Of a DNA stretch of 64,000 nucleotides, positions 18,427-47,450 are shown in pieces. The translations under genes were made by a program, and so were the position numbers. The notes under the pieces are model-generated. The model was not told where the DNA came from, did no database searches, and saw nothing but the letters and a program-made list of their open reading frames with translations. Every line of letters starts with the position of its first letter. Positions within the stretch are counted from its first letter, which is position 1. The DNA is from Psilocybe cubensis (lineage: Eukaryota), in contig CM039001.1 of assembly GCA_017499595.2 (NCBI GenBank), forward strand, positions 3,782,001 to 3,846,000, written 5' to 3'.

Positions 18427-21400
18427 ATGAATCTTTCACCGCCACCACCACCACCACCATTTTCGTCGCAGCCACAGCGAGAGCAGCAGCAAAATGCTGC
18501 CGGGTATCCGCCCTTTAAACGCAATGGACAGGATGCTCAGCACCACCAGTGGGCACAGGCGGGGCCGGGTCCGTCGAGCGTGAGTACTTGCACCACTAAA
18601 TTTGATCTCGCGGTAAAACTGACTGGAGGAATGATAGATTCCGTCATCAGAGCATAATCAAGACAGCGAGCAGAAACGTACTGGACCGTTGCCACGCCTT
18701 GGACCGAGTTTTACTCAAGAATCGAGGTTGCAGCAGCAGCAGCAGCAGCAACATACGCCATCTTATGGTCACCACCAGGTGCGCAGACAATCTTGACGCG
18801 TACTTACAATCTGGTGACTTTTTTGTCTAGGTACCGTTAAATTTTCGATACGATAGGGATGGCAGTGGTTCATTGCACCATGGCAATCATTCTCAGACCC
18901 ATGACTCACATTGCTATCCTCAACCCGAACCATGTATGATGCCATTCATGCACCCGTCTGCCACCCAACATGGTCCTGGGATCTGGAGACCGCTTGAACA
19001 GGAGCTTCAGCTTCAGCAGGGCAAGATAAGCACGTCGAGTGCAAGGGAGGTCGATCATCGGATACCGTCTCAGAGTATGCCCCCGCCCCCACCTCCGCAC
19101 CGCCCAAGCAACCCAGTTAGGAACTCACTACTGTCGATTGCCGTGCCAGGGCCTCGGACACAACCCCAGCAACAAGACGAAACCCAGAATCAACATCAAC
19201 CCGGGCTATCGCTATCAATCCCGCCCCATCAGCAGCGCATGCTTGCACACGCTTTTCAGCAGTTACAATCTACATTTCCTGCGCAGTCTCTGCCCCAGTT
19301 TCACCCGCCGAGCGGCGTTCCTAATCAAGGTAATATTTCTCCAGTGTTTGTACCAGCGACCATGTACTTACCAACTTTTATTCCAGGACCGCCTTCTAGC
19401 TCTAGCCAAATCCCCCCTCCGTCTACCCCTGCCGATCCTCTCTACATCACAATTGCTGCCTTGCTGAAATCGCTTCATAACGGTTTACAGAGCGTCTTGA
19501 ACGAAACCTCTAGTCATATGGTTCAAGCGATGGTCAAAATGCACGACGACTATGTGAAGCTGGCTAGCAAAGAACGTCAGAAAGCGAGGGATTTGGAGAA
19601 TGTGTTGGCTGCGGAAAGGGGCGCATGGGAGAGGTCGAGAATAGATATGCAGTTGGAGATGGATAAGCTAAGGATGAGGGAAGAACGGTTGAGGAGTGAC
19701 TCGGTGGCACATCACGCTGTCGTTCGTGATGGGATTCAGAAGCATCATGCTGCGCAAGATGAGGCGGGGATGCTAAGGAGGGAAAATGAAGAGTTGAAAT
19801 CGAGGCTGGCGAAATTGGGCAAGATTGTGGAAACAATTTGTTACGAGGACAGCTCTGTTGGCAAAGACGTCGCGACTCGAAATCAAGGGCCAACAGAAGA
19901 TGAGGTAGGTCTTCTTTCTATCTTTTTTTATACGTTGACGTCTTTCTTGGCGCCCATTTACCTGCCTTTGTTTTCTTTTTTTGGTGTTTGTTCTTTTGTC
20001 GTCCTGTTATTTTAGTTTTAATTGGTGGCTGACCTCCCCTTTATCTCTCTTTTGCATCTTAGAAATTTGCAGTGGCCTCAGTATCAACGTCCAATCCATC
20101 GACATCATCGTATTCACAGACTAATGGCTACACCAATACTTCCAACCAAAGTGACATTGAAATTCCACCTCCCTCAACATCGTCATCATCAACATACACC
20201 ACCCCTCCCAACAGCCGCAGCGTGTCTTCGACACCGGTACCCGCTTCCGCACCCGCTTCCGCACCCGCAATCCCACATTCTGCCCCACAACTTGCGGCAC
20301 ACCCACAACCACACACTCATCGTCGTCATTCAGCTCCAGTGCCCATTCCTGCACCGGAATCCACGCAAACGATAGCACAGCTTCGACCACAGTCTGATTC
20401 GAGAAGGAGCTATGCAAACTCAATTATGGCGTCGCCTGAATCGAGATCTGTAAGTCCTGCGTTCGTGCATAGGCAAGTTGACGAAGAAGCTAGTGCGGGA
20501 GGGAGTCGTGTGGAAGCCAACATCAGAAATCTCAATATCAGCAAACGCGTCTCTACATCTGTTGCTTCTGAGGTGGAGGTAATTGATTTGTGCAGCAGTC
20601 CGATGTCGATGGCTGTTGATTTGCGCGATGGCGAAGAGGCAGAGGATGTAGAGCATCCCGACGGACAGGGGCGTGTCATGGACGAAGCGCCATCGAGGAG
20701 TCGGTCACCCAGCCCTCCTGAACTGCCCCGTACTGCAGAGGACGAAGCTTCAATTGGAGACCACAATCAAATGGACATAGAGATAGGGGACGACCGCACA
20801 CAACACTCGGAAATGGAAGTAAATGTCAAGCTTGAATCGGAGGTGGAGGTCAAACTTGAACACGACGACGTTCAGATTGATGCGAGCGTTAGCCAGAATG
20901 AGAACACCTCCAGGCGTGGGTACGATAATCATGTATCCTACCATTTCAACGCCCCTACGTACCCTCGAAACCCTAATCGTAGATCTTCACCCTTCCTTCC
21001 ACCTCTGCTTTCTCTACCAACTCCTGCTGCTGGCTCAGTTCCATCTCCATCTCCATCGTCATCCCGTTCTCCTTCCCCAGCACCGGCGTCAACTTTGATG
21101 ACCCGGCCTCGAGATTCCTTGCCGACTGCGAATCCCACTCCGCCTCCTACGCCTACTCTTACACCTTCAATGTCACCTTTCTCGTCGCGGAAAAGGTCTC
21201 GGGCGGACTATGAGCACGGCGAATGTCACGAGGAGAGTCAGGGCCCTTCCACACGCGTCAAAGTTGAGCGCATTGAGGGTGAAGAGATGATGATGGCTGT
21301 CGATGACAGACCAACAATGGCTAACATTGTGACGTCTTCATTAACAAATGCCCCCTCCGCCACTTTGCAGACATCCCAGGCTACCACCGACAACCTCGAT

Positions 21401-23555
21401 GCGCCAAGCTCTGGCTCCACGTCGTCACCTCAAGCTTGTCCAGCTATAGAATCTTCGTCCAAGTTGTCTACTTCACGGGTCTCCACTGGTTCTGTTCACA
21501 GCTTAAATGATGGCCCTTCTTCCCTCGACGTGCAATCTCCACCTACTCAACATGGTAATTCTTCCAACAACAACCCTGTAGCTTCCCGACCGCTATCCGC
21601 CTCTTCCAATACAACTTCAGGCTCAGGACAAACCCAAGCATCTTCTTCGGCTAATGTATTCCCTAGTCCTCCCCGCGAAACACCTGTACCCCCAACTGCA
21701 TCAATTTCAGCACTGAAACTGCGATGCAAGGAAGAAGGTGAAATCACGCCTACAACGACGCCGACAGCAACGCCTACCCCTGCACCTTTGTTGATTTCCC
21801 AGCCTATTCATATATCACCGTCGAAGGAAGAGGGCGAGGTGTCACCTACGCCTAGCCCGGCACCTGCACCTACACCCGCCACACCTGCAACTGTACCCCC
21901 AAGAATGGTTAAAGATCGACGAGTGACAAGCGCTTCTTCCGCTGTTCCCATTCCTGTTGCTTTTGCCAGTCCTAGGAGACACACAATACCGGCGTCCGTA
22001 CACTCCAGTGCGAATATGGGTGGCATGGACGAGGCTTGGGATGTCAGACCTGCGCACACCCCTGTCTTATTGAATGCTTTGTCTAGCAGAGGAGCTACTG
22101 TACATGGCGATGCGCAAAAGGGTAAAGAGGGTGTTGTAATTGAGTCTGTTCCAACCAAAAGTCAGCCAAGTATTTCTAATGGCACCGACATACAGAATGG
22201 TCGAGAAAGCTCTACAGCAGCTTCAGTGGCAACAAGTCGACCGATTGCCGCTCTGACACCGGGGCTTATTCCTGTGGGGACAAATGTCGGAGAGGAGAGG
22301 GAGGTTACAAACGCATCAAGCCATCAGAACATATCCGTTCAATCGCAGACTCCTCAGGCCCGCGCAGAGAATTCGCAAATGATACTGGCACCGTCCTCGT
22401 CGAAGTCGGCCGCTGCAGATGCTCGAAATCATCACAATGCGCTTGCCACTACAGACGCCAACAAAAAAGTCGACCCCAAAGCGGCAGCTGTCGCCATCGG
22501 GGTTGCGATCGCCGACGCTATCAGACATCCGGACGCGAAGCCTAATCCTGTCTTAAATACCATCTTGAATGCGCTCCCTTTGAGGCCACCAGTTGCAGTC
22601 TCGAATTCACAGACCGTTCACGTAACCCCTTCAACGCGATCGAACACGGATTCGACACCGGCTGGCACTGCTGTTCCTATAAGACCGCCACCCCTTCCAA
22701 CACAATCGAAGCAATTCCAACCGTCGCCTCAGGCGTCGTCGGCACCGCCACACCCTGCGCCATCAGCGAGGAATTCTGCACCTAATCCTAGAACTACAGC
22801 ATGTCCACCCCTTGTGCCGAATTCGACTTCTCATGCTAGACCGGGTCAGAAAGCCCCATCTTCGGCCGCTTTTCACACCATGTTCCGCTCCAAACCTCAC
22901 CCTCAGCCAACTCGTCCAACGGCGAATCTGCATCCGAACGCGAACTTGCCTCCGAGGCCTCAAATGCAGTCACAGCCAAACAGAAGTCAAGTCCAGAATA
23001 TGCATCCTCCTCCTCCTCCGAAGGCCGATGCACGAACTGGTAATCCTTCTCAAGTTGATGGGCACAGTCATAATCGTCAGCACCCACAGCAACGTGTTCA
23101 GTCACAACCTCATCTGAATACTCAGTCTCAGCCTCAGCAGCAGAATAATTCTCAACGCCCGCCACAACAACATAAAATGGGCATCAATCATATGGAGCTG
23201 TTGTACAATCGCACGGATAAGTGTTGGACTTGTCGGATATGTTTGTGAGTATCTCTTCTGGCTTGGTTGACGATGTCCGACCCTGATCCCATTGTGTATT
23301 TGCTGTTTTTCTAGGGCTGGAAGGCAGAAAGAATTGACCTCACCTTCTGATTCGTCATCAACGCCCAAGCCAGTTGTCAAGTTCAGCATAGATGCGCCTT
23401 GGGCAGAGTTGGTTGGACATTGTTACAATGAACACCCGGTTGAATCTCAAAAGTTAGAAAGGCTGACGCCTGCACAGGTTGCGGAAATGAAGCAAAGAAT
23501 GCATCTTCCACAGTCTAACCCGGGTCCCAGCCACAAAGGAAATGGGGCGCGTTGA
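18427..23555 (+). CDS. Very large Pro/Gln/Ser-rich disordered protein with coiled coil and C-terminal split CxxC...HxxxxH Zn-finger-like domain
   Basis: ORFs at 18427, 18873, 20072 and 23292 are linked by GT-AG introns; C-terminus HMELLY...CWTCRIC|...APWAELVGHCYNEHP. Confidence 0.75.
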
Positions 23556-25428: not shown

Positions 25429-25996
25429 TGTTAAAGCGGATGTGTTGGATTTTTTGTGCTGAGTTGCTGAATGGGTCTGGGCATTATAGGGGAAGATATG
25501 ACTATATCGTCTATCGCGCGTGAATCGCTGTATGGTCAGAACATAACCAGCACAATGTACCACATGGAACTACCGTTCAACCTCACTTCCATTCAGAGGA
25601 AGATATAATTACAAAAATTACCTTATAGAGCTGGACCTCACTCAATGGGGTCGACCGTCTTGACGTTCTGAGAGACTATCCCTCATTTTTTTTGTTTTCT
25701 GTCATTTCCTCTGAGGGAAGAGATGCTCCTTTGGAATTTTACTAGCTATCTACCCAATAATTACCCCAATTGATAAGGGTGTACTGGGAGTTTCTTGAGC
25801 AGTGATTTTCCATGACTTTCGTTACATGTAAATTTCATCGCATATATAAGTAGGTATTGAATTGTAAAAAGACGTTTATTACTCCTTTATCAAATGTACA
25901 CCAGATTATCAAAGTCATATTTTCCTGTTCTAATCATTGTATACAGATAAGTGTACATGTAAACAGAGGGAAGAAAGAAAACACACATGTCTTTTA

Positions 25997-26208
25997 TCAG
26001 GGGTCCGTGCATACGATACCCTCTGGAGTATGCTCGCAATGCTCACTGAATCATCGGAAACGCAACAATTTGGGGTGTCCAATGTCAGTGCGCGAACGAT
26101 ATGAAGATTTTAGATGCCCTACGGTGGAAGGATTGGTGTCCCAAGTGCGGTCGTAGTAGCGAGAGCGACGAGAGTCAAGGCGAGCAAGGTCTTGATGTAG
26201 TAAAGCAT
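25997..26208 (-). CDS. Secreted 2-Cys micro-peptide precursor, copy A (44 aa): MLYYIKTLLALTLVALATTTALGTPILPP|EHCEHTPEGIVCTDP
   Basis: Exons 26208-26123 and 26045-25997; 77-nt phase-2 GT-AG intron with CTGAC branch site; TATAAAA upstream; paralogous to copies B-F. Confidence 0.85.
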
Positions 26209-28036
26209 GTTGGATCCTGATGTACACGATGTGTATTGTAAATGTGGTTGTGCTGTGAAACTGGCTAGCTTCGCGGCCGCTATTCTGAGTGCTTGTTGAT
26301 TCGACTAGCATGATTTTATACTCCCAGCTGCACCCATATTTTTGGAAATTTGTTGATAAAAATCTACCCTGATGTAGCTCTTATTCAGGCTCAGATAAGA
26401 AGTTGTTAATATACAACCCGTCAAGTGGTTCACCCCTGAGTAAGTTGGGGCTAAATTTGTACATGGATTGGCCAAATGCGGAAATGTGGCGCCAGGATCA
26501 CTACTTTTAAGGTAAATCATCATCCATCGTCCTATTATTGAGGCTCGGTTGGTGGCAGTCCCACTTGGATACGTTTGATATGATGATACGGGAGAAAATT
26601 TAAATGGAAGCCCAACACAATAGTTTGTACATGTTCACTTTTTGGGCAAGACTTGGAAAAACTTTGGAGAAACACTGGGGAAACAAATTAGTTTACTTGA
26701 TGCCAGTAGTTAGAATAGTAATAACAAGGTTAAACAACTCGAAATGAACTAGATTTTGGATATCTTACACATGTACCTTGCGGTATCTGGATAGAAGGAA
26801 ACACTTCAGTGCATCATCTCAACCAAAAGCAATGACGGAAAGAACTTGTGTAAAAAAAGAGAAAGATGAAAGGCTAGGTTACCAAGGGTATCATGATCAA
26901 TAGATATGGAGTTATATCGTATGCTTCAAAACAACCAAAATAGCCCGCCTTGATTTAGATAACTCGAATGCGATTGTTAAGTACACACTTATATGTATGC
27001 AGCAAATTGCAGCGTTATAAGAGCCTCCTGACTCCTGGTTTAAAACAGAGTTTTGTCTCACGCGCAGCAAGTGAGCCAAACATCGGTTGACGGGTTTCAG
27101 AAAATCAATAACTTGTGAATACTTGTGAATATCATTCAGACAAATTGTAACGACGGCATCCAAATAGTAATAGAGTATGCCGAGGGGATCCGGCATGTGT
27201 CACATTGTGAGTAATTGAAGCTCCGACGCATGCCGAGCAGAGGAGTTGGTCACAAGTATCTTGTGACATGCACTGTGCCGCAATGCCTTTCTCTTTGCCA
27301 GGGTGATAGGCAACTACCAACTACAGGAACAAGAACGCAATTCAGCAAAATTTATATTTTTTTGCACTTTGACTCCCATTCAAATTTATTAACGAGTATA
27401 GATGAAACTGAATTCAACGGTACATACCAAGTAACTGTTTATAAAATGTCCAAAGGTATACAATACTACGATGTCAAATGTGAGAAATGTTGTCAGAGTC
27501 GTCTTTGGTTTTAGGCACTGCCAATTGAAAGGAGCAATAGTCCAATTTTTCAAGGAGCATGATTCTATTTTCCAGCCAGGTTAAAGAGACCATAAGTTGA
27601 TGTGTGATGTGCAGCACTTGTATTAAAGATATCTGGATGTCCTGTGTTAAAATTAGACGCCCAGTATTGCTACTGTTGCATCAATATTCACACCGTCAAA
27701 GTCTACAAATCAGTAGCTGCCAGCAATAATGGACCAGCCACCTGGGAGGTCCTGGTCCTGACTTTGTTACTTTCTCTTCCATGATATTACAAAACATGAC
27801 GTCCATCTCATCATTCCGGAAACAACCAAACCACTGAAGGCAGAAATTCCAAAATTTAGTTTGCTTAAACTAGGATGTGAAACTGTTTATTTGTCCAAAG
27901 GTACGTTTCACTCCGTTATCAAATGTGAGCCAAATCATCGGACCAGTCTTCGGCTCTAAACACACTATTCAACTATATAGACAGCGCCAATGGTTCATAT
28001 AAATTTTACCACAGGGGAAGGAGCAACACTTGCCGT

Positions 28037-28276
28037 TTAAAATGCGCTAGGTGGACCGCACATATCTATGTTAGGGGAGCAGTTGACGGGTGGTTTCCTA
28101 ATAATCCGGAACGGATAGAGCAATACAGGATTGTTCATTCAACGTCAGTCCCGATTAATATGAAGAGTTTAGGTGAGGTACTTTGGTGATATGTCAGACG
28201 TTGGTGCAGCAAGTGCAGTCGTAGCAAGCGCAATTAAAGTCAGAGCGAGCAATGTCTTGACGTAGTTGTAAACCAT
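28037..28276 (-). CDS. Secreted 2-Cys micro-peptide precursor, copy B (51 aa): MVYNYVKTLLALTLIALATTALAAPTSDISPK|KPPVNCSPNIDMCGPPSAF
   Basis: Exons 28276-28182 and 28097-28037; 84-nt phase-2 intron; TATAAAA upstream. Confidence 0.85.
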
Positions 28277-29979
28277 GTTGAAGCGTGTTGATACGATGTG
28301 TGGATGGTGGTAATTGGCTTGGGGGCAGATATCCTGAAGTCCTGATCAGCTAACTATGATAGCTTTTATACTGTCAGCTGCGCTTTTGAATCGCGTAATC
28401 CTTATATCCAACCCTAGTCGGTCTGGTTCTTTTCAAAGTGCAGATGAGATGTTATTGATAAACAATTTGTCAAGTGATCCTGTCCGACAGGTTGGGATGC
28501 TATGCCTGTGCACACTGTGACTAAATACGGAAATGCTGGTTTGATTAATACTTCCTGAAATGACTCAGAGGGAAGATGGAAATGGTAAATAGACGCCCCA
28601 AAATAGTTCGTGAACGTCAACAAGTTGACGGGTGGGAACCGGGCGAACTTTTAAAACAAGTTGGTAAACAAGTTTTATTTTTCTTTTCTCTTTGAAGTCA
28701 GTTGAAAAGATCAGTAGTTTACGCTATGGACATTTTGTGCAGTGTGCACCATAATGTAGACCTAAAGATTTTGTGTGAAAACAAACAGGAAGATATTAAG
28801 GCTTAAATTACCGATACCATGATCGACAGACGTCAAAAACATCAGCGCAGCGTCGGGTAGAAAAAACCGGAGAGCGACAGTTTGATCTACCCAATTAAAG
28901 TCATGTATTCCCCTGAGCGAAAAGACACGAGGGTAAATGTTTGGATTCTTTGAAATGAAAGTCCTCTTTACAGTGGAAGTATACACAACTCTACACGGTC
29001 TGGTCCCCTTCAGGCTTCGAGACTGAAGTACTCACTAGTGGAAGTGAAATGATATTGACAATCAACCCATCAAGTGATCCAGAGCGTGCTAACACTCTAC
29101 CACAAGGGAAAAGAAATTAGACGCCCAAAAATACATATGCACTCGATCTGGAAGATCAAAATCACTAGACCAGAACCAGAACCAGAACCAGCAAAATAGA
29201 ATAAAAAAGGACACAAACTGAAATCGTAAAGCTCAAGTGTAAAAGTAAGAAAACATAACAAAATCAAAAAAAAAAAAATCAAAGCAGAAAGATAAAAAAC
29301 CAATAACGATAATAGTATAAATGTCATACTTCACCACCACCACTCTCACACCTCACCCACATCCCACATCTCATCGCTTACCCACTCCGTCCATATTTGC
29401 ATCCCCATCCACCTCTTCATTCCCTCTCCGAGCCACCCTCGCATACGCGCGCTGCCACCATCAATCACACTTAATGTATGAGGTCCATAAAGTCGTAGCG
29501 TAGTCGTTATCCATATCCAAATTCATAAATTTTGATTGTAAGTTTCTTTCAGCTCCAAGGCTGGCGAGATCGCACAACGCACACCACACGCAAGTTGGTC
29601 TTAGCACCGACGCCTAGGAGACTGAGGAGGGACAATGAGGAGGAGTGAGGGATGAGGGCCAACAAGCAATTTGGAATGTAAAAGGAATAGGTGTGCGCAT
29701 GGATCGTATCATTCGAGTGGTCGTTCTTTTTCTTCGCGGACTTCGTGGATGGGGTGGGATCATGGGTGAACAAACGGGACGAATAGATGGATGGGATAGA
29801 TCACGACAGCGATCCCCGCGACCCACTACCAGCGCCATTACTCCCCAGCAACGATTCCAGCTGAATTCCCCAAAATACACCGAGATAACGCAACACAATG
29901 CAGGGATTATAAATAGACACATCAGCCATCCATTCATGCATTCAAGCAGCACAACAAGCGGTATTGCGCAAACGCACCT

Positions 29980-31341
29980 GGTCTAGAACCTCTTTGCTCG
30001 ATCCAGGCCTACCACTCCCTCCTCCGCCGGTCCCAGTACCGCTGTCGTCCACATCCGCTTGCGCGTGAGCGTGGGTATGGGCGTCGTCGCCGTTCTGTGT
30101 AATGCCGTTACGTTATGCCACGTTAGTTGAAAGGTACGTAGTGTAACGTTATGTATGATAAGCATGAGGAAGCACGAGGAGAAGCAGAAGCAAGGGAAGA
30201 AGCGAAAGAAGGGGATTAGGGAGGCTGGGAGTTGATCGTCGATGTGCAGGGTCGATGAACGACGTTTATTTATCGTCGAGCGAGAGACAGAGAAAGCGAA
30301 GAAAAAGCAGAAAAGTACAAAGCAAATCATTGAATCCAACAGAGATTCAAGAATATATGCGCGTTTGCTTAATCCAATAGAACCCAAAAATGAAAATAAT
30401 AATAAAAAACAACACCGTACCTGGGCCTGGTCCTGTTTCCCCTGTCCCTGTCCCTGCCCCTTCTTCCCCGCCCCCGTACCTGCAGCTCCCCCAGCCGCTC
30501 CAGCTCCAGCTCCAGCCGCACCCCCCGACGCGCCTGTCCCGCTGCCATTGAGCGGCACAGGAAAGTTGGCCTCTTCCCTGGGCACGATGTCGATCAAAAA
30601 GTCAAACTGGTCCGATTTCGAGAGCGCCTTGGCGATGTCGGCGCGCGAGAGCGTCCGTCGCTTGTTAGAATCTGCGACGATGAATGCGCGTGCAGTGATT
30701 TCGGCTATGAATACTGTGTATGCGGGTCAATAGGGATAAATGAATGTTGTCGATGGGTGGTGGAAAGTGGGGAACGTGTTATAGTCAGCGAGCTGAGATG
30801 ACAATAGGATAGGATATACATGACGAAGGAATCCACAGCGGACAATCCCCCCTTATTTTCCCCCACAAATGCCAACGAAACTGAAATAAAGAAAACGAGT
30901 ACTCACTTTCGCATGCCTTGCAAAACAATATCGGTGCTATCGCAATCCCAAAATTCCAAATCCTTCAGCTCGCACATCGGTACATACATGAAAAGCACAC
31001 ACACCATCCGCGGCGATCATCTAAAATAAAAACCCCAACCGCGTACGCGCACAAAAAATAAAGTCAACATCCCAAATAAAAAACACAAAAAAACACAAAA
31101 AATCATCAAGGAAAAGATACAAAACAAAACCCCGCACCTTCACATCTGGATCACTCTTCATAACCTTCTTAATCCGTGCAAGCGGGAGCGGAGGGTGCCG
31201 ATAATCAGGCGTCTCCTCCTCCGCCGTCGTGATCTGCCGCTGCCAAAACGAGCGCAAGAACTCGTTCAGCGGTTCCCCTGGCTGCACAAAGGGCTGCTGC
31301 TGAGAGTGGTGGGTGTTTTGTGAATTAGATGAGGATGCCAT
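29980..31341 (-). CDS. HAP5: CCAAT-binding factor subunit C (NF-YC, histone fold); 3' end uncertain
   Basis: [43 protein letters not shown]...[30 protein letters not shown]; the last exon(s) beyond about 29980 were not resolved. Confidence 0.9.
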
Positions 31342-33138
31342 GGGTGTGTATAAACACAAAATCCTAGTTCAGAATTTGGGAAGTGATGTTGTATTGTTGG
31401 CCCTGAGATCTGGGGCGCGTGTGGGTCTGTGTTGCCCGTGTTCGGGTAGACTTTGCAGATCAGAGTACAAAGCCACAACCTTCGGGCGCGTACGCTGTGT
31501 CTTGACGATAAATGAGAAAAAAAGACGCTTGCGCAGGACGAGCAAGCGAGGATGAGGAAAGGATAATGGGAGGATGAGAGAAAGGAAGCGAAGACAAACG
31601 ACTTCCGCGGTTCAGGTCCCCTCAGAGTCTAGATCTGGCCAATTGATGATCATTGATCGCACCCTGGCCAATGCCGTTGTTTGTTTTTTTTTGCCGAAAT
31701 ACTGCCATTTATGGATAATGACACGTGAAATAGTGGCACATGGCAGATATCTAATCTGATATGGTGTTAGCGATGGGAATGGTCTTGGTCTTGACACCAG
31801 GAAACAGGATCGCATCCTTTTCTCCTCTCTCCTAACTGGTTTTGACATTATCTGTGCTATGCGAGCTTGGGTGCGGTGCAGATACGACAATTACTCCATA
31901 CATAGACACATAGGACTCGAGTATCATATGCTTGACAACCTTTGCAAGTGAGCGGGTCGGGAATGGAATGTGGTGGCATCAATGGGAAAGGGAGAGGTAG
32001 TGGGGTGGAGGCAAGTGGTCAGTGGGAAGGGAAAATAGTAGTGGTATATTTCACGTTCCCGGTAGCCACAGTATATGCCAGTGACATATTTTCAGATGAT
32101 CACATCTGATACCGTCGGTTTTGTAGTATGATCCAGGTGGGTATAGTGCGTTTCTTTCCAGTGGGTCATGCCAGAAATGGGGAGCCGGTAGGCTGACTAA
32201 CACTGGGCGTCTAATTTTGACACATGAGACGCGAGACGCCCTGTTTTGCGATGTGGAATTCATTATCCAAGAACCGTAACTAGGGTAGACACTCGACATT
32301 CAAGGTATGTTATCCTGAATTTTGTGATGTTCTTTTCTACCTTTCTGACGCTCCAAAAACTGTTTAGGAAGCTCCCAGCAAAACAATGAGGAAGAATATC
32401 CCGAAATATTGCCATTTGCGGCTCTTTCGTCCCGCCCGAGGAGACGTATTTTTACCTGTACATATCATTCTCTCACTGTCGAGTTTTTTAAGCCAAAGCT
32501 GTGGTTATGTTTTGTGTATCCATATCCGTTTGATCATGACTTCTGTAGTCTGAGCTTTTCTTATGTTTTCGCTCATATTGCATATGAACTCCATGCACCC
32601 ACACATTCCAGGAGCAGGAAGATGTCAGACACAACCCAATCCCATTGAAAGCCATGCTTGTTTTCAAATGAAATTGTAACCCATTCCCACCCATCAAGCT
32701 GTCGACGCTCATGAACTATTTTTGGGCGTCTATTTACCGACCCCATTCTCTTCATGTCGGGATATATCAAAGGGCTCCTGTCATTGACCGAGAGCGCAGA
32801 TGGTTTCTGACGAATCCAATAATAAGACAAATGAACGCCGATGACCCCTCCATCGGTTGAAGCAACTCCAGCCCAGCTTGTCCAATTTGGCTAAAGTGTG
32901 CACAGGCATTGGATCTCCGCTTACTCGGACTGAATCCATTGACAACTTTTTTATCAATAAAATCTCATCTGCGTCTTAAAAAATAACCATACCGAGCAGC
33001 TTAGTTTTAAATTAATCTCGCAAATAAAATGCGCAGCTGCCACAGTATAAAAGCCAGATCAGTTGAGGCATCGAGACCTCAGGATACCTGCCCCAAATCA
33101 GAAACCTCTATCCACACAGCATCTCAGCAAGCTTCAGC

Positions 33139-33385
33139 ATGGTTTACAACTACGTCAAGACCTTGCTTTCCCTGACTCTCGTTGCGCTTGCCACAACGAC
33201 CGTACTTGCAGCACCAGCTTCTGACCTATTCGGGTATCTAATTTATATTCTCTATAATTAATCGGGACTGATGTCGAATGAATCATCCTAAATTTCCCTA
33301 TCCGTTCCGGATTGATAGGAGACCCATCGGATGCCCTCCTGATTTTAAAAATCCGGCATTGTGCGAAGCACCTGGAGTAAATTGA
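33139..33385 (+). CDS. Secreted 2-Cys micro-peptide precursor, copy C (53 aa): MVYNYVKTLLSLTLVALATTTVLAAPASDLFG|RPIGCPPDFKNPALCEAPGVN
   Basis: Exons 33139-33233 and 33319-33385; 85-nt phase-2 intron; TATAAAAG at about 33046. Confidence 0.85.
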
Positions 33386-33533
33386 ACAAGGTAAGTTTCT
33401 CGCCTCTTCCCTGTTAAAATTTTATAAACCACTGACAGCAGCATACAGTGTTTACAGCCAACGACTACTCCGATAATCCAGCTCACATGTGAATAACGGA
33501 GTGTTACATACCTTTGGACAAATAAACAGTTGT

Positions 33534-36331
33534 GGGCACCAGGAAATCAGCGTGGTTAGCCCGCGTGCGACCTATTTTTGCGTGCCACGCATAAATGCGA
33601 ATCAGCAAATTTGCGTGTCTTTCACATGACTTTGCGTGCGAAATGCTACATGTTGCGTGTGCATGGAACGTAAACGCGTGCAGTGTTATTGTGGTAGCGT
33701 GCTAGTTGCGTGCAAAATTCCGTATAAAACTCACATGAAGAGTAGTGTATAGTAAGCTATTTTCTGCAAGAATTGTAGTATGCTACGCATCCAGTTGGAC
33801 TAAGTAATTAATGGTCATCCTACTTTGTATGACATAATTATGACACGATTTTCCGTTGAAAATGCGAACATTGAGAAATAGAATTCTGCTCACTAGTCTC
33901 CGGCCTTTTCTTATTATAGTACTTACATTTTGCGTGTGCAAACATCTAAGTGCTTAGTGTCCAGATAAAATTAGTACAGAGCGTGGTAAATTTTACCTTG
34001 TGTCGTGGTCGGGTCATGGTCAAGTCGTGGTTTTCATCAAAACCAATGCCGTACATATTGATATTATTGTAGGATGGTCCCTCTGGCAATGGTTTCTCTA
34101 AAACCACGATTTTAATAGATGATTAAGAGTATAATTACCCCAGATAATCTAATTTTTTTCTGAGTTTATATTGGGTTGTCCACGGCAAAGCATAATGCTG
34201 CAGGATATATCTTGTTGTGGCTGTTTCCGGCACAATTACATTGATTAATTTGAAGCCGAAAATGCCGAGAGACTTTAGAAATGACGAACTCTGACAAATA
34301 ATAATCAAGGTTGTGAGAGAGGGAACTGAATTTGGAATATGTCCATGCAAACCTCGTAGTACTGTGTTATTGATAAGAAAATCATTAGATACACCAGCAT
34401 AAACCAAAGCCACAGCACAACCACACCAAAGTATGCTGTTCATACTGGGGTGTACGCACTAACAACTAAGTACCTAGTTACGAAACCTAACACTAATGTA
34501 CGTACTAAGGTTCTGGACTTGCTATTTTTGTACTGACCAAAATCTGAAGCCAGACACTTCGCATTTTCAACGGAAAATCGTGTCATACCTATGACACGAT
34601 TTTCCGTTGAAAAAGCGAACATTGAGAAACAGAGTTGTACTCACTAGTTTTGGGCCTTTCTTTACATTGTAGTACTTACATTTTGAGTGTGCGAACAGCC
34701 CATTGCATGGTATTCTGATAAAATTAGCACAGACCGTGGTAATTTTAAACTCGTGTCGTGGTAAAGCTGTGGTCAAGTCGTGGTTTTGTCAAAACCAATG
34801 GTGTACGTGTTGGTATTATCCTAGGGTGGTCTCTTTGAAGATGGGCTTCCCTAATACAGTTATTTTAACAGATATTTAAGGGCACAATTATTCCAGATAA
34901 TCTGGAATTTAACTGAGTTTATATCGGCCTATCACGGCAAAGTATAATGATATAGTATTTGTCTTGCTGTGGGTGTTTCCGGCACATTTACATCGATTAT
35001 TTTAATGCTGAAGGAGCCGGGATATGTTGGAAACAAAAAAATCTGAGAAATAATTACAAATGTTGTGTGGAAGTAACCAGGACTTTGTATAGTTCATGTA
35101 AACAGGGTATTAACTGTATCATTAATAAGAAAACCATTTTATACAGCAATGTACGACCACACCAAAGTACGTTGTTCAACTAAGGGTGTATGCACTAACT
35201 ACTAAGTACTTCATGACGAAACCTGACACAAATGTACGTATCAAGGTTCTAGGCTTGCTATTTTTGTAGCTACCAAATCCTGAAGCCGGACACTTCGCAT
35301 TTTCAACGGAAAATCGTGTCATATAGATCCCAAACAGGAACACAAATGCATACCACAAGATACTCATTTAACGAATTCATTGAGTTTCACCTTTTAATTT
35401 ATTTGAGATCTTTCAAACATTCAACATTAATGCCAAAATGAAAGTTCAATCTATCTAATGGTACATCCGGACGTATTTTTGCATTAAACTACCCCAAAAC
35501 GCATTATTTCGTACTAGCGTGCAAGACTAAACTGCTTGCGGGGCCATCGCGTGCAGATTACAATTGTTTGCGTGCCAATTGCACGCACTTAATTGGGTCG
35601 CGTGCTATCGCGTGCCGTCGCGTGCCATCGCGTTCACGTGGGAAAGTGGATCGCGTGCTGCCTGCGTGGTAAATGCGTGCAATTGAGTGCACCTAGCGTG
35701 CTGTGGTGTCACGCTGGTGGTCGTTCAACAACATGAATTGCATGCCAAATTGACAAAATTGTTGTTTTTCTCCAAGTTCACCGTTTGATCGGATATTACC
35801 GATCATAAACCGTTGCCGATTTTATTGCCGAATCTTGGTTGCGGAGTCGGAGATTATTGCGAGGCCACGCCGAGGGACACGGCATACCAAGCCGTCCCAC
35901 AAGCTCATTGTTTGTATGGCCCCTCTAAACACCAAATTGTTTCATTGAAGTTCTACTGGTTCCGAGAGCCAAACACCTACACTTACCATGTATTGTAGAC
36001 TGTTAAAGACATATATGTTGATCAATTCAAATACAGTATAGACATGTAATAATCTCTACATCCTAACTGCTTGATATCCGTGGTGGTGGCTGCACATGAA
36101 GTTAGTATAATACAAGGGCATACTGACAATACATTATTACACACCAAATAAATATAAATGAACGCTAACGACCACTGTTACGTTACAATCCTACGTGTGA
36201 CACAGCTGTGACATTGCGTGCAGAACATATCAATATGCGTGCAGAACACAGTTGTTGCGCAAAAATGCGTGTCACGCAGGCACACGCAAAAACGCACGCA
36301 CGCGAGCAGCCACGCTGATTTCTGTATGCCC
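33534..36331. mobile_element. Non-autonomous TIR element with 9-bp TSD (Mutator/MULE-like), about 2.8 kb
   Basis: Imperfect TIR GGGCA..GAAATCAGCGTGG..CGCGTGCG / CGCACGCG..CCACGCTGATTTC..TGCCC; exact TSD AACAGTTGT (33525-33533 and 36332-36340); many subterminal GCGTGC repeats; no transposase ORF. Confidence 0.85.
33839..35323. mobile_element. Two tandem ~740-bp MITE copies nested in the MULE-like element
   Basis: Each copy is bounded by TATGACACGATTTTCCGTTGAAAA(T/A)GCGAA...TTCGCATTTTCAACGGAAAATCGTGTCATA (33839-34587 and 34590-35323); internal sequences are homologous but diverged; terminal TA may be a Tc1/mariner-type TSD. Confidence 0.8.
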
Positions 36332-37246
36332 AACAGTTGTTATTATGAGATATAAAATGCAGTTTGACATAAATTGCGACCTTGAGAACCTACCAATCAT
36401 AGTTCAAATAAACTCAATTTCTGGTGTTTGCAGTTTGTGCATCCATCGTATTGTGGAAGAGAACCTAAGGGTTCCAGGACGGACCAAGGACCTCCGAGGT
36501 GGTCGGCCCATCATTGCTAGTACCTACAGGTTTGTGGACTTTGACGGTGTGAACATTGATACAACAATAGCATTGAGCAATACTGGGCGTCTAATTTTAA
36601 CACAGGACATCCGAGACGTCCCGTGGGTCCATATGCCGTCCAGCGTTAAGAATAGGTTGAACAATGAGTGCGATGGAAAAGCATCATTTAAGTATTATTT
36701 CTTATCGATTTCTCCATATCTTTGCTCGATTACTTTACCCCTCCTTAAAACGTCATAAATCAACTGAGAAGCTGCCTCGTTGAAATCACCATTTACGGCT
36801 TTTGGTTTGCGCTCGGGTTGGCTCGTATTTATAATTGTGTATATCAAGTATCATAGAGCGCTGTTGCTTTTGATATTCGTTGATCATGATATCTTTAATC
36901 GAAGCTTTGATTATCTTCTCGTTTTCGCACACCGGCTCATTGTCGCATTATTTTGGCGGGAAGAAAGGTCCAATACAAACCCAAATCAAGCTATTTCTTC
37001 TTCCTACTGGCTTTACTAAAAAACGAAATATAACACATTCTTTGCTTTCCAAGATAAGGCAAATATAACCCATTGACTTGTCGACAAGCACACGGTTAGT
37101 GGGACCGAATAGCTTGGCGGGTTGTTTAATAATACCATATCGTTTGCCTGTGAGTCTTGAGAAACGACCGCATGAAGTATGTATACAAATCCCACATGGG
37201 CCAGATGTAGCCTCGAGTATAAAACCAGGCAAGCCAGGTACTTAAC

Positions 37247-37409
37247 ATGGTCTACGTTCAATAGTATTCCTCAAAACCTTGCTCACCATGACTCTTGTCG
37301 CCCTTGCGGCTACAACCGCACATGTGATACACTGTTTCTTATCATAGTATGGAACATATCCAGGTGCGACTGCCATCAACCGAGCGTCGAGATCGGTCGA
37401 GAGCAATAA
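37247..37409 (+). pseudogene. Decayed copy D of the secreted micro-peptide family
   Basis: TATAAAACCAG, then ATG GTC TAC followed by a stop and frameshift, then FLKTLLTMTLVALAATTA; most of the intron is deleted. Confidence 0.7.
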
Positions 37410-37738
37410 TAGGATCATGGATGATGGATATCGATGACCATTTACCCCCCTAGCGCCACATATCCGCATTTAGTCAACGCATACACAAATTTAACCCCAA
37501 CTTACTCAGGGTGAATCACTTGACGGGTTTTATATCAATAACTTCTCATTTGCGCCTAAATATAAACTACATCAAGTATATTTCTGTCAACGAATTTCTC
37601 TCAAGATGGGGGAAGCCTGGAGTATAAAACCAAGTTAGTAGAATCGTTAAACACTCAGGATAGCAGTCGCAAAGCCGGCCATTTTCACAGTACAACCTCA
37701 CATACATACAGTAAAACTCGCGTATATCACGATCCAAC

Positions 37739-37955
37739 ATGGTTTACTACATCAAGACCTTACTTGCATTGACTCTCGTCGCTCTCGCGACTACTACTGC
37801 ACTTGGGGAACCAGCCCTAATTCCACCGTAGGACATCTAAAATCTTCATGTTGTTCACGCACTGACGTTGAACACGTCAATTTCCGCGTTCTTGATAATT
37901 TAGTATTCGTTGCAGAGAATTTCCAGACGGTCGCGTCGAATGCCAGGACCCATGA
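37739..37955 (+). CDS. Secreted 2-Cys micro-peptide precursor, copy E (46 aa): MVYYIKTLLALTLVALATTTALGEPALIPP|IRCREFPDGRVECQDP
   Basis: Exons 37739-37827 and 37904-37955; 76-nt phase-2 intron; TATAAAA at about 37623. Confidence 0.85.
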
Positions 37956-39175
37956 GGGAAGACATGTGTGTTTTCCTTCTTTCCTCTGTTTACATGTACA
38001 CTTATCTGTATAAAGTGGTTAGACCCGAAAAAGCGAGTTATATAATTTGGTGCACATTTGACAAGGAGGATTACATACATTTCGACAACAAATAGTTACT
38101 TATGTGATGAAATTGAACGGAATTCAAAGAAAACCTCAGCGTCCAAGAGACTTGCAATACACGGAGATCATCTCTCAGAACGCTGATGTATCCCTTTGGA
38201 CAATACTAGCTTATTTTGTCGACGCTGTTTGGCAAGTTTGTGCAATTCTCATCCGTCAATATATGTCTACGCGTACGGGCGCAGTCCTTTATCCTAAGGT
38301 GTTTAAAAACCACCATACACTAATTGCGCTGATATCTTACTAGTACCAAGTAAAATAATAGGACGGTTAACGCATATGGTACCCCACTTAAAAGGAGCAA
38401 TCCAAGGCCCCTATCATATACCCTTATGTCTTCAAAGTACACAGATTTAGCAAATTTGCTTACTCACCCTTAAGGCTGAGTCACTCGACAGGGTGTTTAT
38501 CAATAGCTGCAACAGCCAACCACCTGAACTGCAATCGAGACACCAACCCCTGAAATTTACTACATCTGAAATGCACCATTGTTCCAACGTAACTGCCTTC
38601 GAATAACTACCCATTTTATTTCACTTATTTCCAAAGTTTGCAACTGTCAACCGACCTGTCAACGGTACAGACTATTTTTGGGCGTCTATTTTGACAACAA
38701 CATATTTACTCGTATCAGGTGTATCGAGGGGCTCCCTAAAGTTATCTTCCATTGCCAACTAGGCATGGTGACTCTTATGAGTTTGTTTGAAATCGAATCC
38801 TTAGTTTTCGAAGAGTAATAATAGGGCACTAAACGTTGACGACGCCTCTTCTCTTGGATGAAGTAATCCGCAGACCCGTATGTCTGCATAACTTATTAGA
38901 AGGTACACAGATTCAACACCCCGTTTGTTGTCACTGAATTACTGAATTATTTGACAGATTGTTAATTAGCAACATGCATCTGAGTTTGAGTCTTGGAAAA
39001 TAACCACACCGAGTAGCTCTGGGTGTGAGAAACTCCTGTCGAAGAGATAGGCTTTCAATATAAAAGCCAGACCAACTGATTCATGAATACCTCAGGACAC
39101 CTACCAAGAAACCAGCCAATTCTATCCACGCGCTCACAATTATACATTAACATAACACTCATCAAGATATCCAAC

Positions 39176-39394
39176 ATGATTTACTACGTCAAGACATTGC
39201 TCGCATTGACTCTCGTCGCTCTTGCCACCAAATCTGCGCTTGGGGCACCAACCCCTCAAAGGTAATACACATGAATTCTTCTTCGTATTCAGCTACTGAC
39301 GCTTGAGTAACATCAATTTTCGTGTCCGTGACGATTTAGTGTAGATGACTGCTTGAATGATCCGGCGGTATGCGTCCCAAGGCGAATCGAATAA
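39176..39394 (+). CDS. Secreted 2-Cys micro-peptide precursor, copy F (46 aa): MIYYVKTLLALTLVALATKSALGAPTPQS|VDDCLNDPAVCVPRRIE
   Basis: Exons 39176-39261 and 39340-39394; 78-nt phase-2 intron; TATAAAAG at about 39059. Confidence 0.85.
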
Positions 39395-46031: not shown

Positions 46032-47450
46032 TCACATGCGTAACCTCCGCCTCAACTCGAAGATCTCCGCGGGATGCAGCCTCTGCACATCCGCGCATTC
46101 ATTAGGGTGCGCAAACACACAGTGATCGCGGAGCGTGTCCCAAGAAGCAGTAGCCGGAAAGGTGGTCGCTGCGTGCTTCGCATTAAGATTGGGACTGCCA
46201 CCAGGGGATGGGGAGGCAGATGCAGTACCTTTTGATTGCGGTGAGCGTGTGCCCAATGTTGTCGTCCCCTTGGACTTTGACGCGTCCAGCAAACATGCTC
46301 TGCATACCAGCCCGCCGTCGACGGGGAGATACATGATGTCGACGTGTGGGAATGTCCCTTTCAACACATGTGGCGCGGTGTTTGAGTTTAGACTCCGTGG
46401 CATGGCGCCTTCGTTATAATTGTGTGGTGAGGCATCGCTCTGCATGAGCAACGACTGGACAGGAGGGAGGAGTGTCTCAGTATGGACGTGGATAGCGCCG
46501 TCGCACGACTTGCGCCGCTTCACAGAAGCATACGGATACATCGCCGACGCGGATGCGGATGAGGATGAGGAGGTCGACGAGAGGTCGTCGTACGAATTCG
46601 ACCGCGAACGCGACTGCGAAGAAAAACCGCTCGAGCTCGCAGACGACGAATCGTCGCTGAGAGCTGAGTTAGGCGGCGCCGTGCCTGTGCCGCTACCGTT
46701 TGAGACTGAGCTCAGGGGAGGGGGAGGAGATGCGAAATGCTGCAGTTCGGGGCTCTGGATCCCCTGGAGAGGCGAGAGAGGTGGGGAAGATTTGCGCAGT
46801 GGGCGGACTGTACGGGGGCTCCTGCTAATAGAACCAGGAGACCGGTTTTCCATACCAGTTGAACTGCCTGAGGGAGTGATATCGGCGTCCCTAGTCCTCT
46901 TTCCGCCTCGTACAGCACTGACATCCGCATCCACATTGGCGTTCGGAGACGAAGGAGATCCATCCCTCGACATGGAACTTATATTTGACACCCCACTGTG
47001 GCTAAAATTCACTTGCCCGGTCTGCTGCCCCCGCATTAGCTCGCCGACCTTTGCCCTAGCAACGTCGCGCTCCCGCATAACGCGTACGCACACCTCGTGC
47101 AGCCGCCTCTTCTCCTCCTGCTCGTGCATAAATAGCGCCATACACACCGCGCGGATTTCGGAGAGGTCCGCTCGCATGCGCGAGGCATGGACGGAGAATG
47201 CTTTGTCCAAGGGACCAGCAGTTGCGGATGTGGAAGTGGAAGTGGGGGCGTTGGTCGTTGAAGAGGTATTTTGTAGGGGGGTGGTGGGTGAATATGTATG
47301 CGGTTGAGGCGCTGCACTGTTGGGAATCTGGGTCCTCAGAATGGGATGATGATGGCGTTGACGCCGTGTCGGCCCTGGTCCAGGCGCAGCGTTGGTCGGT
47401 AGACAAACTTTCCTGGGTGGTGTATGTGGAGGAGAATGAATAATCCTCAA
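46032..47450 (-). CDS. Ser/Pro-rich protein with coiled coil and C-terminal split Zn-finger-like domain (5' end unresolved)
   Basis: 472-aa open frame; C-terminus HVDIMY...LVCRAC...ASWDTLRDHCVFAHP. Confidence 0.7.
   Translation of the reverse strand: MRIIHSPPHTPPRKVCLPTNAAPGPGPTRRQRHHHPILRTQIPNSAAPQPHTYSPTTPLQNTSSTTNAPTSTSTSATAGPLDKAFSVHASRMRADLSEIRAVCMALFMHEQEEKRRLHEVCVRVMRERDVARAKVGELMRGQQTGQVNFSHSGVSNISSMSRDGSPSSPNANVDADVSAVRGGKRTRDADITPSGSSTGMENRSPGSISRSPRTVRPLRKSSPPLSPLQGIQSPELQHFASPPPPLSSVSNGSGTGTAPPNSALSDDSSSASSSGFSSQSRSRSNSYDDLSSTSSSSSASASAMYPYASVKRRKSCDGAIHVHTETLLPPVQSLLMQSDASPHNYNEGAMPRSLNSNTAPHVLKGTFPHVDIMYLPVDGGLVCRACLLDASKSKGTTTLGTRSPQSKGTASASPSPGGSPNLNAKHAATTFPATASWDTLRDHCVFAHPNECADVQRLHPAEIFELRRRLRM

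Follow-up and report, generated by a model that had tools for sequence, protein, structure and literature searches.

Does a short part of the Psilocybe cubensis genome hold a family of very small genes for secreted peptides that annotation has passed over? The question is raised by a stretch of 64,000 nucleotides (nt) from contig CM039001.1 of assembly GCA_017499595.2 (positions 3,782,001 to 3,846,000, forward strand). This whole stretch is called the window, and positions are counted from its first letter. A preliminary description of the window had proposed five two-exon genes of 44-53 codons and at least one pseudogene, with a conserved signal peptide on one exon and a hypervariable part framed by two cysteines on the other. 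Five intact two-exon genes of 44-53 codons, here named g1 to g5, and one relic of an exon 1 have been identified within about 13 kb. The outer limits of g1-g5, 25997 and 39394, are exactly those given earlier. The five micro-genes are very likely real and maintained by selection. On balance, it is probable that they are unannotated protein-coding genes for lineage-specific secreted disulfide-loop peptides, and that the mature part of these peptides is diversifying.

The copies were located with tblastn. One exon-1 peptide searched against the window returned five strong copies (E 6e-15 to 2e-6) and a weak relic at 37267-37326 (E 0.001). Beyond the five copies and the relic, nothing in the 64-kb window had an E value below 0.4. 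Gene models were made by enumerating the GT..AG introns 3' of each ATG, and in each copy there is one model of the common architecture. The number and size of the genes are supported by these copies and by the open frames that splicing gives at the coordinates in Table 1. All exon-1 lengths are 2 modulo 3, and therefore every intron is in phase 2. A phase-2 intron of 76-85 nt in every copy, as had been proposed, is found in five of five models. The introns are alike in having GTA at the donor, YAG at the acceptor, and, without variation, ACTGA at the branch site. The core promoters are also alike in the five genes. They consist of TATAAAA and, 25-26 nt later, YCAGRAYA, which is likely an initiator. 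An A-rich CAAC/CAGC context precedes the ATG of each gene. The combination TATAAAA-N(15-45)-YCAGRAYA occurs five times on both strands of the 64 kb, always 86-115 nt upstream of the ATGs of g1-g5, and TATAAAA alone occurs 18 times. In the five genes, 10 of 10 Cys codons, five stops, five donors, five branch sites, five acceptors, and five TATA/initiator motifs are intact. The exon-2 open reading frames (ORFs) of g2 and g3 that have an ATG inside the intron were considered as separate genes. They were rejected, as the frame of that ATG is not open in g1. All five genes have single-copy DNA depth (about 82-88 in the DNA run X2), and the adjoining repeat reaches 400-1500. The micro-genes are therefore not part of a transposon, and a transposon origin was ruled out.

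The claim of at least one pseudogene was also confirmed. The relic keeps the TATA box and the codons ATG-GTC-TAC, after which an 11-nt insertion brings an in-frame TAG. The remnant of the signal peptide runs on in another frame after this stop. Neither an intron nor an exon 2 is left at 37218-37330.

The family has expanded in part by an old inverted segmental duplication, in which g1/g4 and g2/g3 are mirror pairs about a unique center. Overall, the duplication covers 25779-28640 and 32684-38162 and is made of four blocks with 71-87% identity and a unique center of about 4 kb. The two block alignments allow the coding parts to be compared with their surroundings. Within the predicted exons, each of the six insertions or deletions has a length divisible by three (3, 3, 3, 9, 3, and 3), versus one of 20 in the flanks and introns (Fisher p=3e-5). 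The earlier argument was that an open frame with two Cys and a stop in every copy is unlikely by chance. It is strengthened by these in-frame changes, by a promoter motif exclusive to the genes, and by the invariant Cys.

Nonsynonymous (dN) and synonymous (dS) rates were computed with the Nei-Gojobori method. For g1/g4, dN and dS were 0.088 and 0.38 in exon 1, and 0.562 and 0.386 in the 16 codons of exon 2. For g2/g3, they were 0.125 and 0.616 in exon 1, and 0.683 and 0.77 in the 19 codons of exon 2. On these sequence estimates, exon 1 is under purifying selection, with a dN/dS of about 0.2. At nonsynonymous sites, exon 2 changes five to six times as fast as exon 1. The two exons have similar synonymous rates, and exon 2 is therefore not simply a mutation hot spot. 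The comparison of dN/dS that had been suggested for the two exons thus gives a conserved exon 1 and an exon 2 near 1.

Exon 2 was also compared with the non-coding sequence around it. Pooled over g1/g4 and g2/g3, identity is 149/178 in exon 1, 868/1149 in introns and flanks, and 68/107 in exon 2. Identity is lower in exon 2 than in the non-coding sequence (p=0.010), and the nonsynonymous p-distance of exon 2 is 0.42 versus a non-coding p-distance of 0.245 (p=0.0009). The introns differ at 16/76 and 18/84 positions, which is about 0.25 substitutions per site (Jukes-Cantor). Exon 2 diverging no faster than introns was the outcome named in advance as contrary to the proposal. Since exon 2 is faster than the introns and flanks, the opposite was found. 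Between subfamilies, homology detected by BLAST spans the promoter, exon 1, and the intron. The homology of g4 and g5 (37732-37904 versus 39169-39340) stops exactly at the first base of exon 2. The anatomy of the genes, the conservation of their frames, the purifying selection on exon 1, and the fast change of exon 2 are computed results. They uphold the picture of a conserved signal exon joined to a fast-changing, Cys-framed exon (exon-2 dN 0.56-0.68). "Near-invariant," the earlier term for exon 1, was too strong, with 16 of 33 alignment columns invariant and a mean column identity of 78%.

The products can be described from the translated models. The signal part was called by simple rules (hydropathy and small residues at -3/-1), and the mature peptides were computed with the cut set before the invariant X-Pro. 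The signal part has 23-24 residues and one Lys, and its best 11-residue Kyte-Doolittle mean is 2.2-2.5. It begins with the pattern M-x-Y-(N)-Y-[VI]-K and continues with an 11-residue hydrophobic core. Position -3 is A or V, position -1 is G or A, and position +2 is Pro, each in all five products. The predicted mature peptides have 21-29 residues, a net charge of -4 to 0, and 4-7 Pro (17-25%), with no Trp or Tyr. Two Cys, all encoded by TGC (10/10), are present in each product, with 8, 6, 9, 9, and 6 residues between them in g1-g5. The loop between them holds at least one Pro in every product, so that exactly two Cys 6-9 residues apart with a Pro in the loop, as first described, is correct for all five. 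The N-terminal tail has 8-14 residues and the C-terminal tail 3-6. Only the two Cys columns are invariant in the exon-2-coded part of the five-way alignment. Because of this invariant Cys pair and the secretory context, a disulfide is expected, and secretion with one disulfide is the best-supported inference from the sequences. The predicted mature peptide has the look of a constrained loop that contains Pro and is flanked by short, flexible tails. A toxin, an antimicrobial, a protease inhibitor, or a signal had been proposed as roles. The charge and Pro content speak against one of these, the classical cationic antimicrobial, and membrane-active action is disfavored for the predicted peptides. 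A Bowman-Birk-type inhibitor loop has the motif T-[KR]-S-x-P-P. This candidate was rejected, as the loops do not contain the motif.

Table 1. Positions of the five micro-genes, their parts, the relic, and the left arms of the inverted duplication in the window.
Feature	Position	Strand	Remarks
Left outer arm of inverted duplication	25779-26588		carries g1; partner 38162-37340, 74% over 840 nt
Left inner arm of inverted duplication	27881-28539		carries g2; partner 33531-32873, 71% over 684 nt
Gene g1	26208-26123, 26045-25997 (with stop)	-	44 codons
g1 exon 2	25997-26045	-	16 codons plus split codon; stop TGA; 8 residues between two TGC Cys
g1 intron	26046-26122	-	77 nt, phase 2; donor GTAGGG, branch ACTGAC, acceptor CAG
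g1 exon 1	26123-26208	-	signal-like peptide, 23 residues; A-x-G before predicted cut, then X-Pro
g1 core promoter and 5' leader	26209-26320	-	TATAAAA 26320-26314; YCAGRAYA about 26 nt downstream; CAAC before ATG
Gene g2	28276-28182, 28097-28037 (with stop)	-	51 codons
g2 exon 2	28037-28097	-	stop TAA; 6 residues between Cys pair
g2 intron	28098-28181	-	84 nt, phase 2; donor GTACCT, branch ACTGAC, acceptor TAG
g2 exon 1	28182-28276	-	signal-like peptide; A-x-A predicted cut site, then Ala-Pro
g2 core promoter and leader	28277-28370	-	TATAAAA 28370-28364; YCAGRAYA
Gene g3	33139-33233, 33319-33385 (with stop)	+	53 codons
g3 core promoter and leader	33046-33138	+	TATAAAA at 33046; YCAGRAYA
g3 exon 1	33139-33233	+	signal-like peptide; V-x-A predicted cut site, then Ala-Pro
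g3 intron	33234-33318	+	85 nt, phase 2; donor GTATCT, branch ACTGAT, acceptor TAG
g3 exon 2	33319-33385	+	stop TGA; 9 residues between Cys pair
Pseudogene relic	37218-37330	+	TATAAAA 37218-37224; ATG 37247; in-frame TAG 37262-37264
Gene g4	37739-37827, 37904-37955 (with stop)	+	46 codons
g4 core promoter and leader	37623-37738	+	TATAAAA at 37623; YCAGRAYA
g4 exon 1	37739-37827	+	signal-like peptide; A-x-G, then Glu-Pro
g4 intron	37828-37903	+	76 nt, phase 2; donor GTAGGA, branch ACTGAC, acceptor TAG
g4 exon 2	37904-37955	+	stop TGA; 9 residues between Cys pair
Gene g5	39176-39261, 39340-39394 (with stop)	+	46 codons
g5 core promoter and leader	39059-39175	+	TATAAAA at 39059; YCAGRAYA
g5 exon 1	39176-39261	+	signal-like peptide; A-x-G, then Ala-Pro
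g5 intron	39262-39339	+	78 nt, phase 2; donor GTAATA, branch ACTGAC, acceptor TAG
g5 exon 2	39340-39394	+	stop TAA; 6 residues between Cys pair

Relatives of the family were searched for in several collections, with the low power that such short queries allow. In a word-indexed protein search, the 40-residue exon-1 ORF of g3 had no candidate among proteins of 22-70 residues. Among those of 71-2000 residues it had 75 candidates, none at E<=10. A profile of the five exon-1 peptides had 0 matches at E<=0.001 against 1.84 billion representatives, and its 29 positions give it little power. In metagenomes, a scan with the exon-1 profile gave 40 pattern matches and 0 confirmed ones, and a scan with a degenerate exon-1 DNA pattern gave 0 matches. 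All seven exon-1 and exon-2 ORFs submitted to Pfam were without a significant family, DUF3270 (E 0.047) and GUB_WAK_bind (E 0.16) being far below the cut-off. The 21-residue exon-2 peptide of g3 had 0 matches among PDB sequences. A full-text literature search, covering main texts, found no paper describing such a family. By these tools, the micro-genes appear to be absent from the predicted proteins of the searched collection and can be assigned to no described family. The suggestion of a possibly undescribed family therefore stands so far as the protein, profile, metagenome, Pfam, and PDB searches matched none.

The micro-genes form a family that is new and unannotated and of a general kind already known, and its split by exon between the conserved and the fast-evolving part is unusually clean. 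Conotoxin precursors have a conserved signal, a hypervariable mature peptide framed by invariant Cys, and local gene duplication. Contryphans have a single disulfide and a Pro inside the loop. The micro-genes share the conserved signal, the hypervariable Cys-framed mature part, the local duplication, and the one Pro-containing loop. Unlike conotoxins, they are fungal, have no sequence similarity or common ancestry with them, and lack a long propeptide. Their signal and mature parts are split by a phase-2 intron of about 80 nt, and a venom function is not implied. The conotoxin architecture in the preliminary description can thus be kept for gene architecture and evolutionary mode. It does not extend to homology, as there is no Pfam family match and the organism is a fungus. 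By analogy, the likeness to conotoxins and frog-skin peptides is one of evolutionary mode only. As part of three papers presents them, anuran skin-peptide genes, mussel MgCRP-I, and myticalin have a conserved pre(pro) region, a hypervariable mature peptide, and multigene clusters, and diversifying evolution has been proposed for them (PMC7106915, PMC4558851, PMC5577615). In those accounts, the families are mostly cationic antimicrobial or have 6 Cys, and the predicted micro-gene peptides differ in being acidic to neutral (net -4 to 0), Pro-rich, and framed by 2 Cys.

Closer to the organism are the MSDIN genes. In Amanita, Galerina, and Lepiota, MSDIN precursors are encoded by Agaricales micro-genes of 34-50 codons that have conserved flanks and a hypervariable core and are often unannotated. 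Their core is bracketed by invariant Pro, the leader has no hydrophobic signal, and there is a conserved follower. The micro-genes resemble them as small Agaricales multigene families with a variable core that annotation misses. They differ in their hydrophobic signal-like N-terminus and Cys-bracketed variable part, and they have no conserved follower and no MSDIN motif. Their products end 3-6 residues after the second Cys. MSDIN precursors have a dedicated prolyl oligopeptidase (POPB-type) for macrocyclization. Of the 20 long window ORFs that were scanned, none matched an S9 peptidase.

Other fungal classes are also informative. Fungal small secreted proteins are defined operationally by a predicted N-terminal signal peptide, a length under 300 residues, and the lack of a transmembrane or other domain. 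The micro-genes match this description, with 44-53 residues, signal-like features in all five (by the same rules), and no domain match. As an operational class, and judged from sequence, they would be such proteins at the very lowest size limit. Fungal small secreted proteins, including mycorrhiza-induced ones (MiSSPs) and effectors, are orphan, fast-evolving, and clustered and have a signal peptide, and they are typically of 60-300 residues with several disulfides. In Cryptococcus, Qsp1 is a tiny precursor that gives an extracellular peptide in a basidiomycete and has no Cys. Both are like the micro-genes in being tiny or orphan fast-evolving precursors of the secreted type, and the micro-genes differ by their one Cys pair. 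Hydrophobins have 8 Cys and the CS-alpha-beta defensins (copsin, plectasin) 6-12 in a fixed arrangement, and micro-gene products have exactly 2 in five of five. Psilocybe cubensis belongs to the Agaricales and appears to be a dung saprotroph. A host-effector role would thus have no obvious host.

Kex2-repeat proteins (KEPs) are described, in passages of one paper, as a signal peptide followed by several repeated cores separated by KR/RR/KK sites (PMC9769878). The same passages report that STE13, a secretory dipeptidyl aminopeptidase, trims X-Pro/X-Ala motifs in fungal peptide precursors. KEPs, alpha-factor-like precursors, and dikaritin precursors, so far as described there, are like the micro-genes small fungal secretory precursors with a signal and an STE13-type X-Pro/X-Ala beside the peptide (PMC9769878). 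KEPs and dikaritins have several cores flanked by dibasic sites in that description, whereas the micro-genes have one core and no internal repeats. Dibasic pairs are present only in g2 (KK) and g5 (RR), at differing positions. The word "disulfide" has 0 occurrences in the main text of the KEP paper (PMC9769878). Basidiomycete mating pheromones are cytoplasmic CaaX lipopeptides according to a passage of the same paper (PMC9769878). Unlike these precursors, which have no signal peptide and a C-terminal Cys-aliphatic-aliphatic-X box, the micro-genes have a signal-like N-terminus, and their last Cys is 3-6 residues from the stop, with polar or Pro residues after it. The earlier judgment that the genes do not fit MSDIN peptides, CaaX pheromones, or Kex2-repeat proteins agrees with the N-terminus, the Cys framing, and the lack of repeats and of a CaaX end.

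A possible course from gene to peptide can be set out, in which transcription, splice sites, signal cleavage, the disulfide, secretion, and the target are predictions. The TATA-box promoter would drive a transcript estimated at 0.3-0.4 kb, and the single phase-2 intron would be spliced out. The product of 44-53 residues would enter the endoplasmic reticulum by its signal peptide of 23-24 residues, with one Lys in the n-region and the 11-residue hydrophobic core. Signal peptidase would leave a peptide of 21-29 residues that starts with X-Pro. Its two invariant Cys would be oxidized to one intramolecular disulfide, closing a Pro-containing loop with 6-9 residues between the Cys, and the peptide would be secreted. 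Both tandem and inverted segmental duplication have produced the copies. The promoter, signal exon, intron, and 3' flank have stayed conserved after these events, and at nonsynonymous sites the mature exon has changed at about the pace of neutral sequence or above it. By analogy, it is proposed that such a pattern marks peptides with a loop that binds an external partner that is itself changing. As the most likely role, the peptides would act outside the cell as inhibitors or ligands that bind molecules from other organisms, for instance from those that compete with or graze on a dung saprotroph; lysis of membranes is a less likely one. Extracellular binding is favored over self-signaling, further processing of the peptide, decay, and a membrane-anchored form.

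Several points weigh against this reading. The exon-2 dN/dS values of 1.46 and 0.89 come from 16 and 19 codons and are indistinguishable from 1. The rate of exon 2 is compatible with diversifying selection, and equally with near-neutral drift outside the frame and the two Cys. The case for conservation is drawn from paralogues only, with two informative pairs and 35 exon-2 codons. Divergence of introns and flanks (K about 0.25-0.35) is less than that of synonymous sites (0.38-0.77), so the non-coding parts may be constrained or partly homogenized, which may inflate the contrast with exon 2. No relative was detected outside the 64-kb window. The signal peptide was assigned by simple rules alone, the disulfide and the hairpin are inferences, and the micro-genes are known here from DNA sequence alone. 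In addition, one contig of the DNA run X3 skips 33225-33466, the 3' half of g3, and at least one copy may thus be dispensable or replaced in some haplotypes. The skipped 240 nt run from late in exon 1 through the intron and exon 2 into the 3' flank. A different X3 contig agrees exactly with the window across g3. Two haplotypes are thereby suggested, the second with the 3' half of g3 deleted or replaced.

Functional secreted peptides need not be directed at other organisms. They could be the fungus's own signals, whether developmental, quorum-type, or self/non-self, that are read by a fungal receptor and whose diversity gives specificity to paralogues or alleles. Small, non-cationic, Pro-rich peptides with a constrained loop are ligand-like rather than lytic. 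The g3 allele that is possibly divergent or missing in X3 would suit a recognition function. All mature N-termini are X-Pro, a motif that STE13 trims according to part of one paper (PMC9769878). The core of signaling peptides is usually conserved where it is active, and here only two Cys are. No receptor, mating-type, or incompatibility gene was present among the 20 long ORFs scanned, and the products lack the CaaX end of basidiomycete pheromones as that paper describes them (PMC9769878). Self-signaling is considered unlikely.

Another explanation is that the genes encode precursors of peptides made on ribosomes and then modified after translation (RiPPs) of the secretory pathway. The core would be further cut or modified (trimming, hydroxyproline, pyroglutamate, Cys cross-link), leaving a final product far below 21-29 residues in size. 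MSDIN precursors follow this RiPP logic of a hypervariable core joined to a conserved leader. So do dikaritin precursors, as a passage of one paper presents them (PMC9769878). There are basic sites near the loop in some copies, KK in g2, RR in g5, and a single R in g3 and g4, and the N-termini are X-Pro in five of five. These sites do not amount to a KEX2 site consistent across the five, there are no repeats, and the N-terminus resembles an ordinary signal peptide. As for enzymes, no prolyl oligopeptidase, UstYa/DUF3328, methyltransferase, or tyrosinase is among the 20 ORFs scanned, and the only oxidase-type match is a questin-oxidase-like gene about 16 kb off. Further processing of this kind appears improbable.

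It is just as improbable that the genes are silent or decaying duplicates, or give transcripts that are never translated. Exon 2 would then be drifting, with the Cys pair and the frame inherited from a functional ancestor. An exon-2 dN/dS near 1 is what drift would give. One copy has already turned into a pseudogene, repeats and rearrangements are common at the locus, and no annotated protein or relative was found. The frame has nevertheless been kept through six of six coding insertions and deletions across about 25% neutral divergence, and exon 1 has a dN/dS of about 0.2. All Cys codons, stops, splice signals, and TATA/initiator motifs are intact. What decay does at this locus can be seen in the true pseudogene, with its insertion, its stop, and the loss of its 3' half. 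Lastly, an uncleaved N-terminus is very improbable. The products would then be tiny proteins that span the membrane once by a signal anchor and carry a short Cys-loop tail on the luminal or extracellular side. In favor of this, no part of the protein is better conserved than the hydrophobic stretch. Against it, the uncharged length of this stretch is only about 16-18 residues, and the canonical small-x-small site after it in five of five fits a cleaved signal better than a transmembrane helix.

If the micro-genes are expressed, a class of two-exon micro-genes escapes standard fungal annotation. This kind of blind spot is also known for plant peptide genes, according to part of one paper (PMC3924332). 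A non-repeat disulfide-loop type would then join the MSDIN, borosin, and KEP-derived peptides among the few known ribosomal peptides of mushrooms. The sharp boundary at the intron between conserved and hypervariable sequence makes the family a compact test case for focal diversification in fungi, and the predicted products of 21-29 residues are easy to synthesize and screen. A stronger reading, entertained only tentatively and by analogy, is that this psilocybin mushroom has a conotoxin-style arsenal of single-disulfide peptides, with the mature exon under focal diversifying selection and the promoter, signal, intron, and untranslated regions fixed. If true, it would be the first fungal example of that evolutionary mode. 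It would also offer a new, easily made peptide scaffold, possibly acting on animals or microbes of the dung habitat. The family may in that case be much larger, genome-wide and in related Agaricales, and invisible to annotation.

The sequence 3' of the genes also has common features. About 55 nt after the stops of g1 (25940-25996, -) and g4 (37956-38010, +) have 2 differences only and are far better conserved than exon 2. Overlapping ORFs in this flank were rejected as coding, since both differences are nonsynonymous and there is no codon pattern. A related pyrimidine-rich element, ...CTGTT.A.A..., is found 3' of the stop in all five genes. A second common motif, CACATTTGATAA.GGAG, is found about 110 nt downstream in g1-g4. 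These elements possibly serve 3'-end formation or mRNA stability. Directly after the stop of g3 (33390-33470, +) there is a perfect GTAAGT donor, followed by a branch-like CACTGAC and a CAG. The paralogue g2 has GCAAGT in the place of this GTAAGT. The g2/g3 subfamily may have an intron in its 3' untranslated region.

High-copy repeat DNA occupies 33244-36631, where the depth in X2 is 400-1500 versus about 83 for single-copy DNA. This stretch has internal direct and inverted repeats (33830-34587 versus 34581-35323). One X3 contig joins 33524 to 36332, and the 2.8-kb block is thus probably an insertion polymorphism.

Two small contig sets from one study, X1 and X5, were guessed to be RNA. They behave as RNA at the neighboring genes, with joints 30713>30907 and 30937>31138 that are absent from X2 and X3. 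Neither of these two small sets has a contig on any micro-gene, which is evidence neither for nor against expression. The unique center of the inverted duplication holds an NF-Y-type histone-fold gene and a highly expressed neighbor. A 15-nt micro-exon of the NF-Y-type gene (31006-31020, -) is used in X1 and X5, in which 30937 is joined to 31138. The 15 letters of this micro-exon occur once in the window.

An intron-less ORF for methylthioadenosine phosphorylase (6531-7379) is 100% identical to a Psilocybe cubensis protein and 94% identical to one of P. cyanescens. The Pfam scan of the 20 long ORFs found a PNP_UDP_1 phosphorylase, a questin-oxidase-like protein in three ORF pieces, a histone-fold protein of the NF-Y type, a fructosamine kinase, and Tcf25. 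It found no peptidase, UstYa/DUF3328, methyltransferase, receptor, or mating-type gene in these 20 ORFs, and there is no sign in the sequence of a RiPP cluster or a recognition locus around the micro-genes. The questin-oxidase-like gene (8981-10523, +) is split by short introns into its three ORFs (PF14027, E 2e-39 to 1e-14). The distance to the nearest micro-gene is about 16 kb, and a link of the questin-oxidase-like gene to the family is not evident. Long Ser/Pro-rich frames are present at 11202-13343 (-), 20063-23245 (+), 46035-47489 (-), and 53151-53930 (-). These frames have 260-1061 codons, 15-18% Ser, 10-14% Pro, and no Pfam match, and they are probably disordered regions of ordinary fungal genes.

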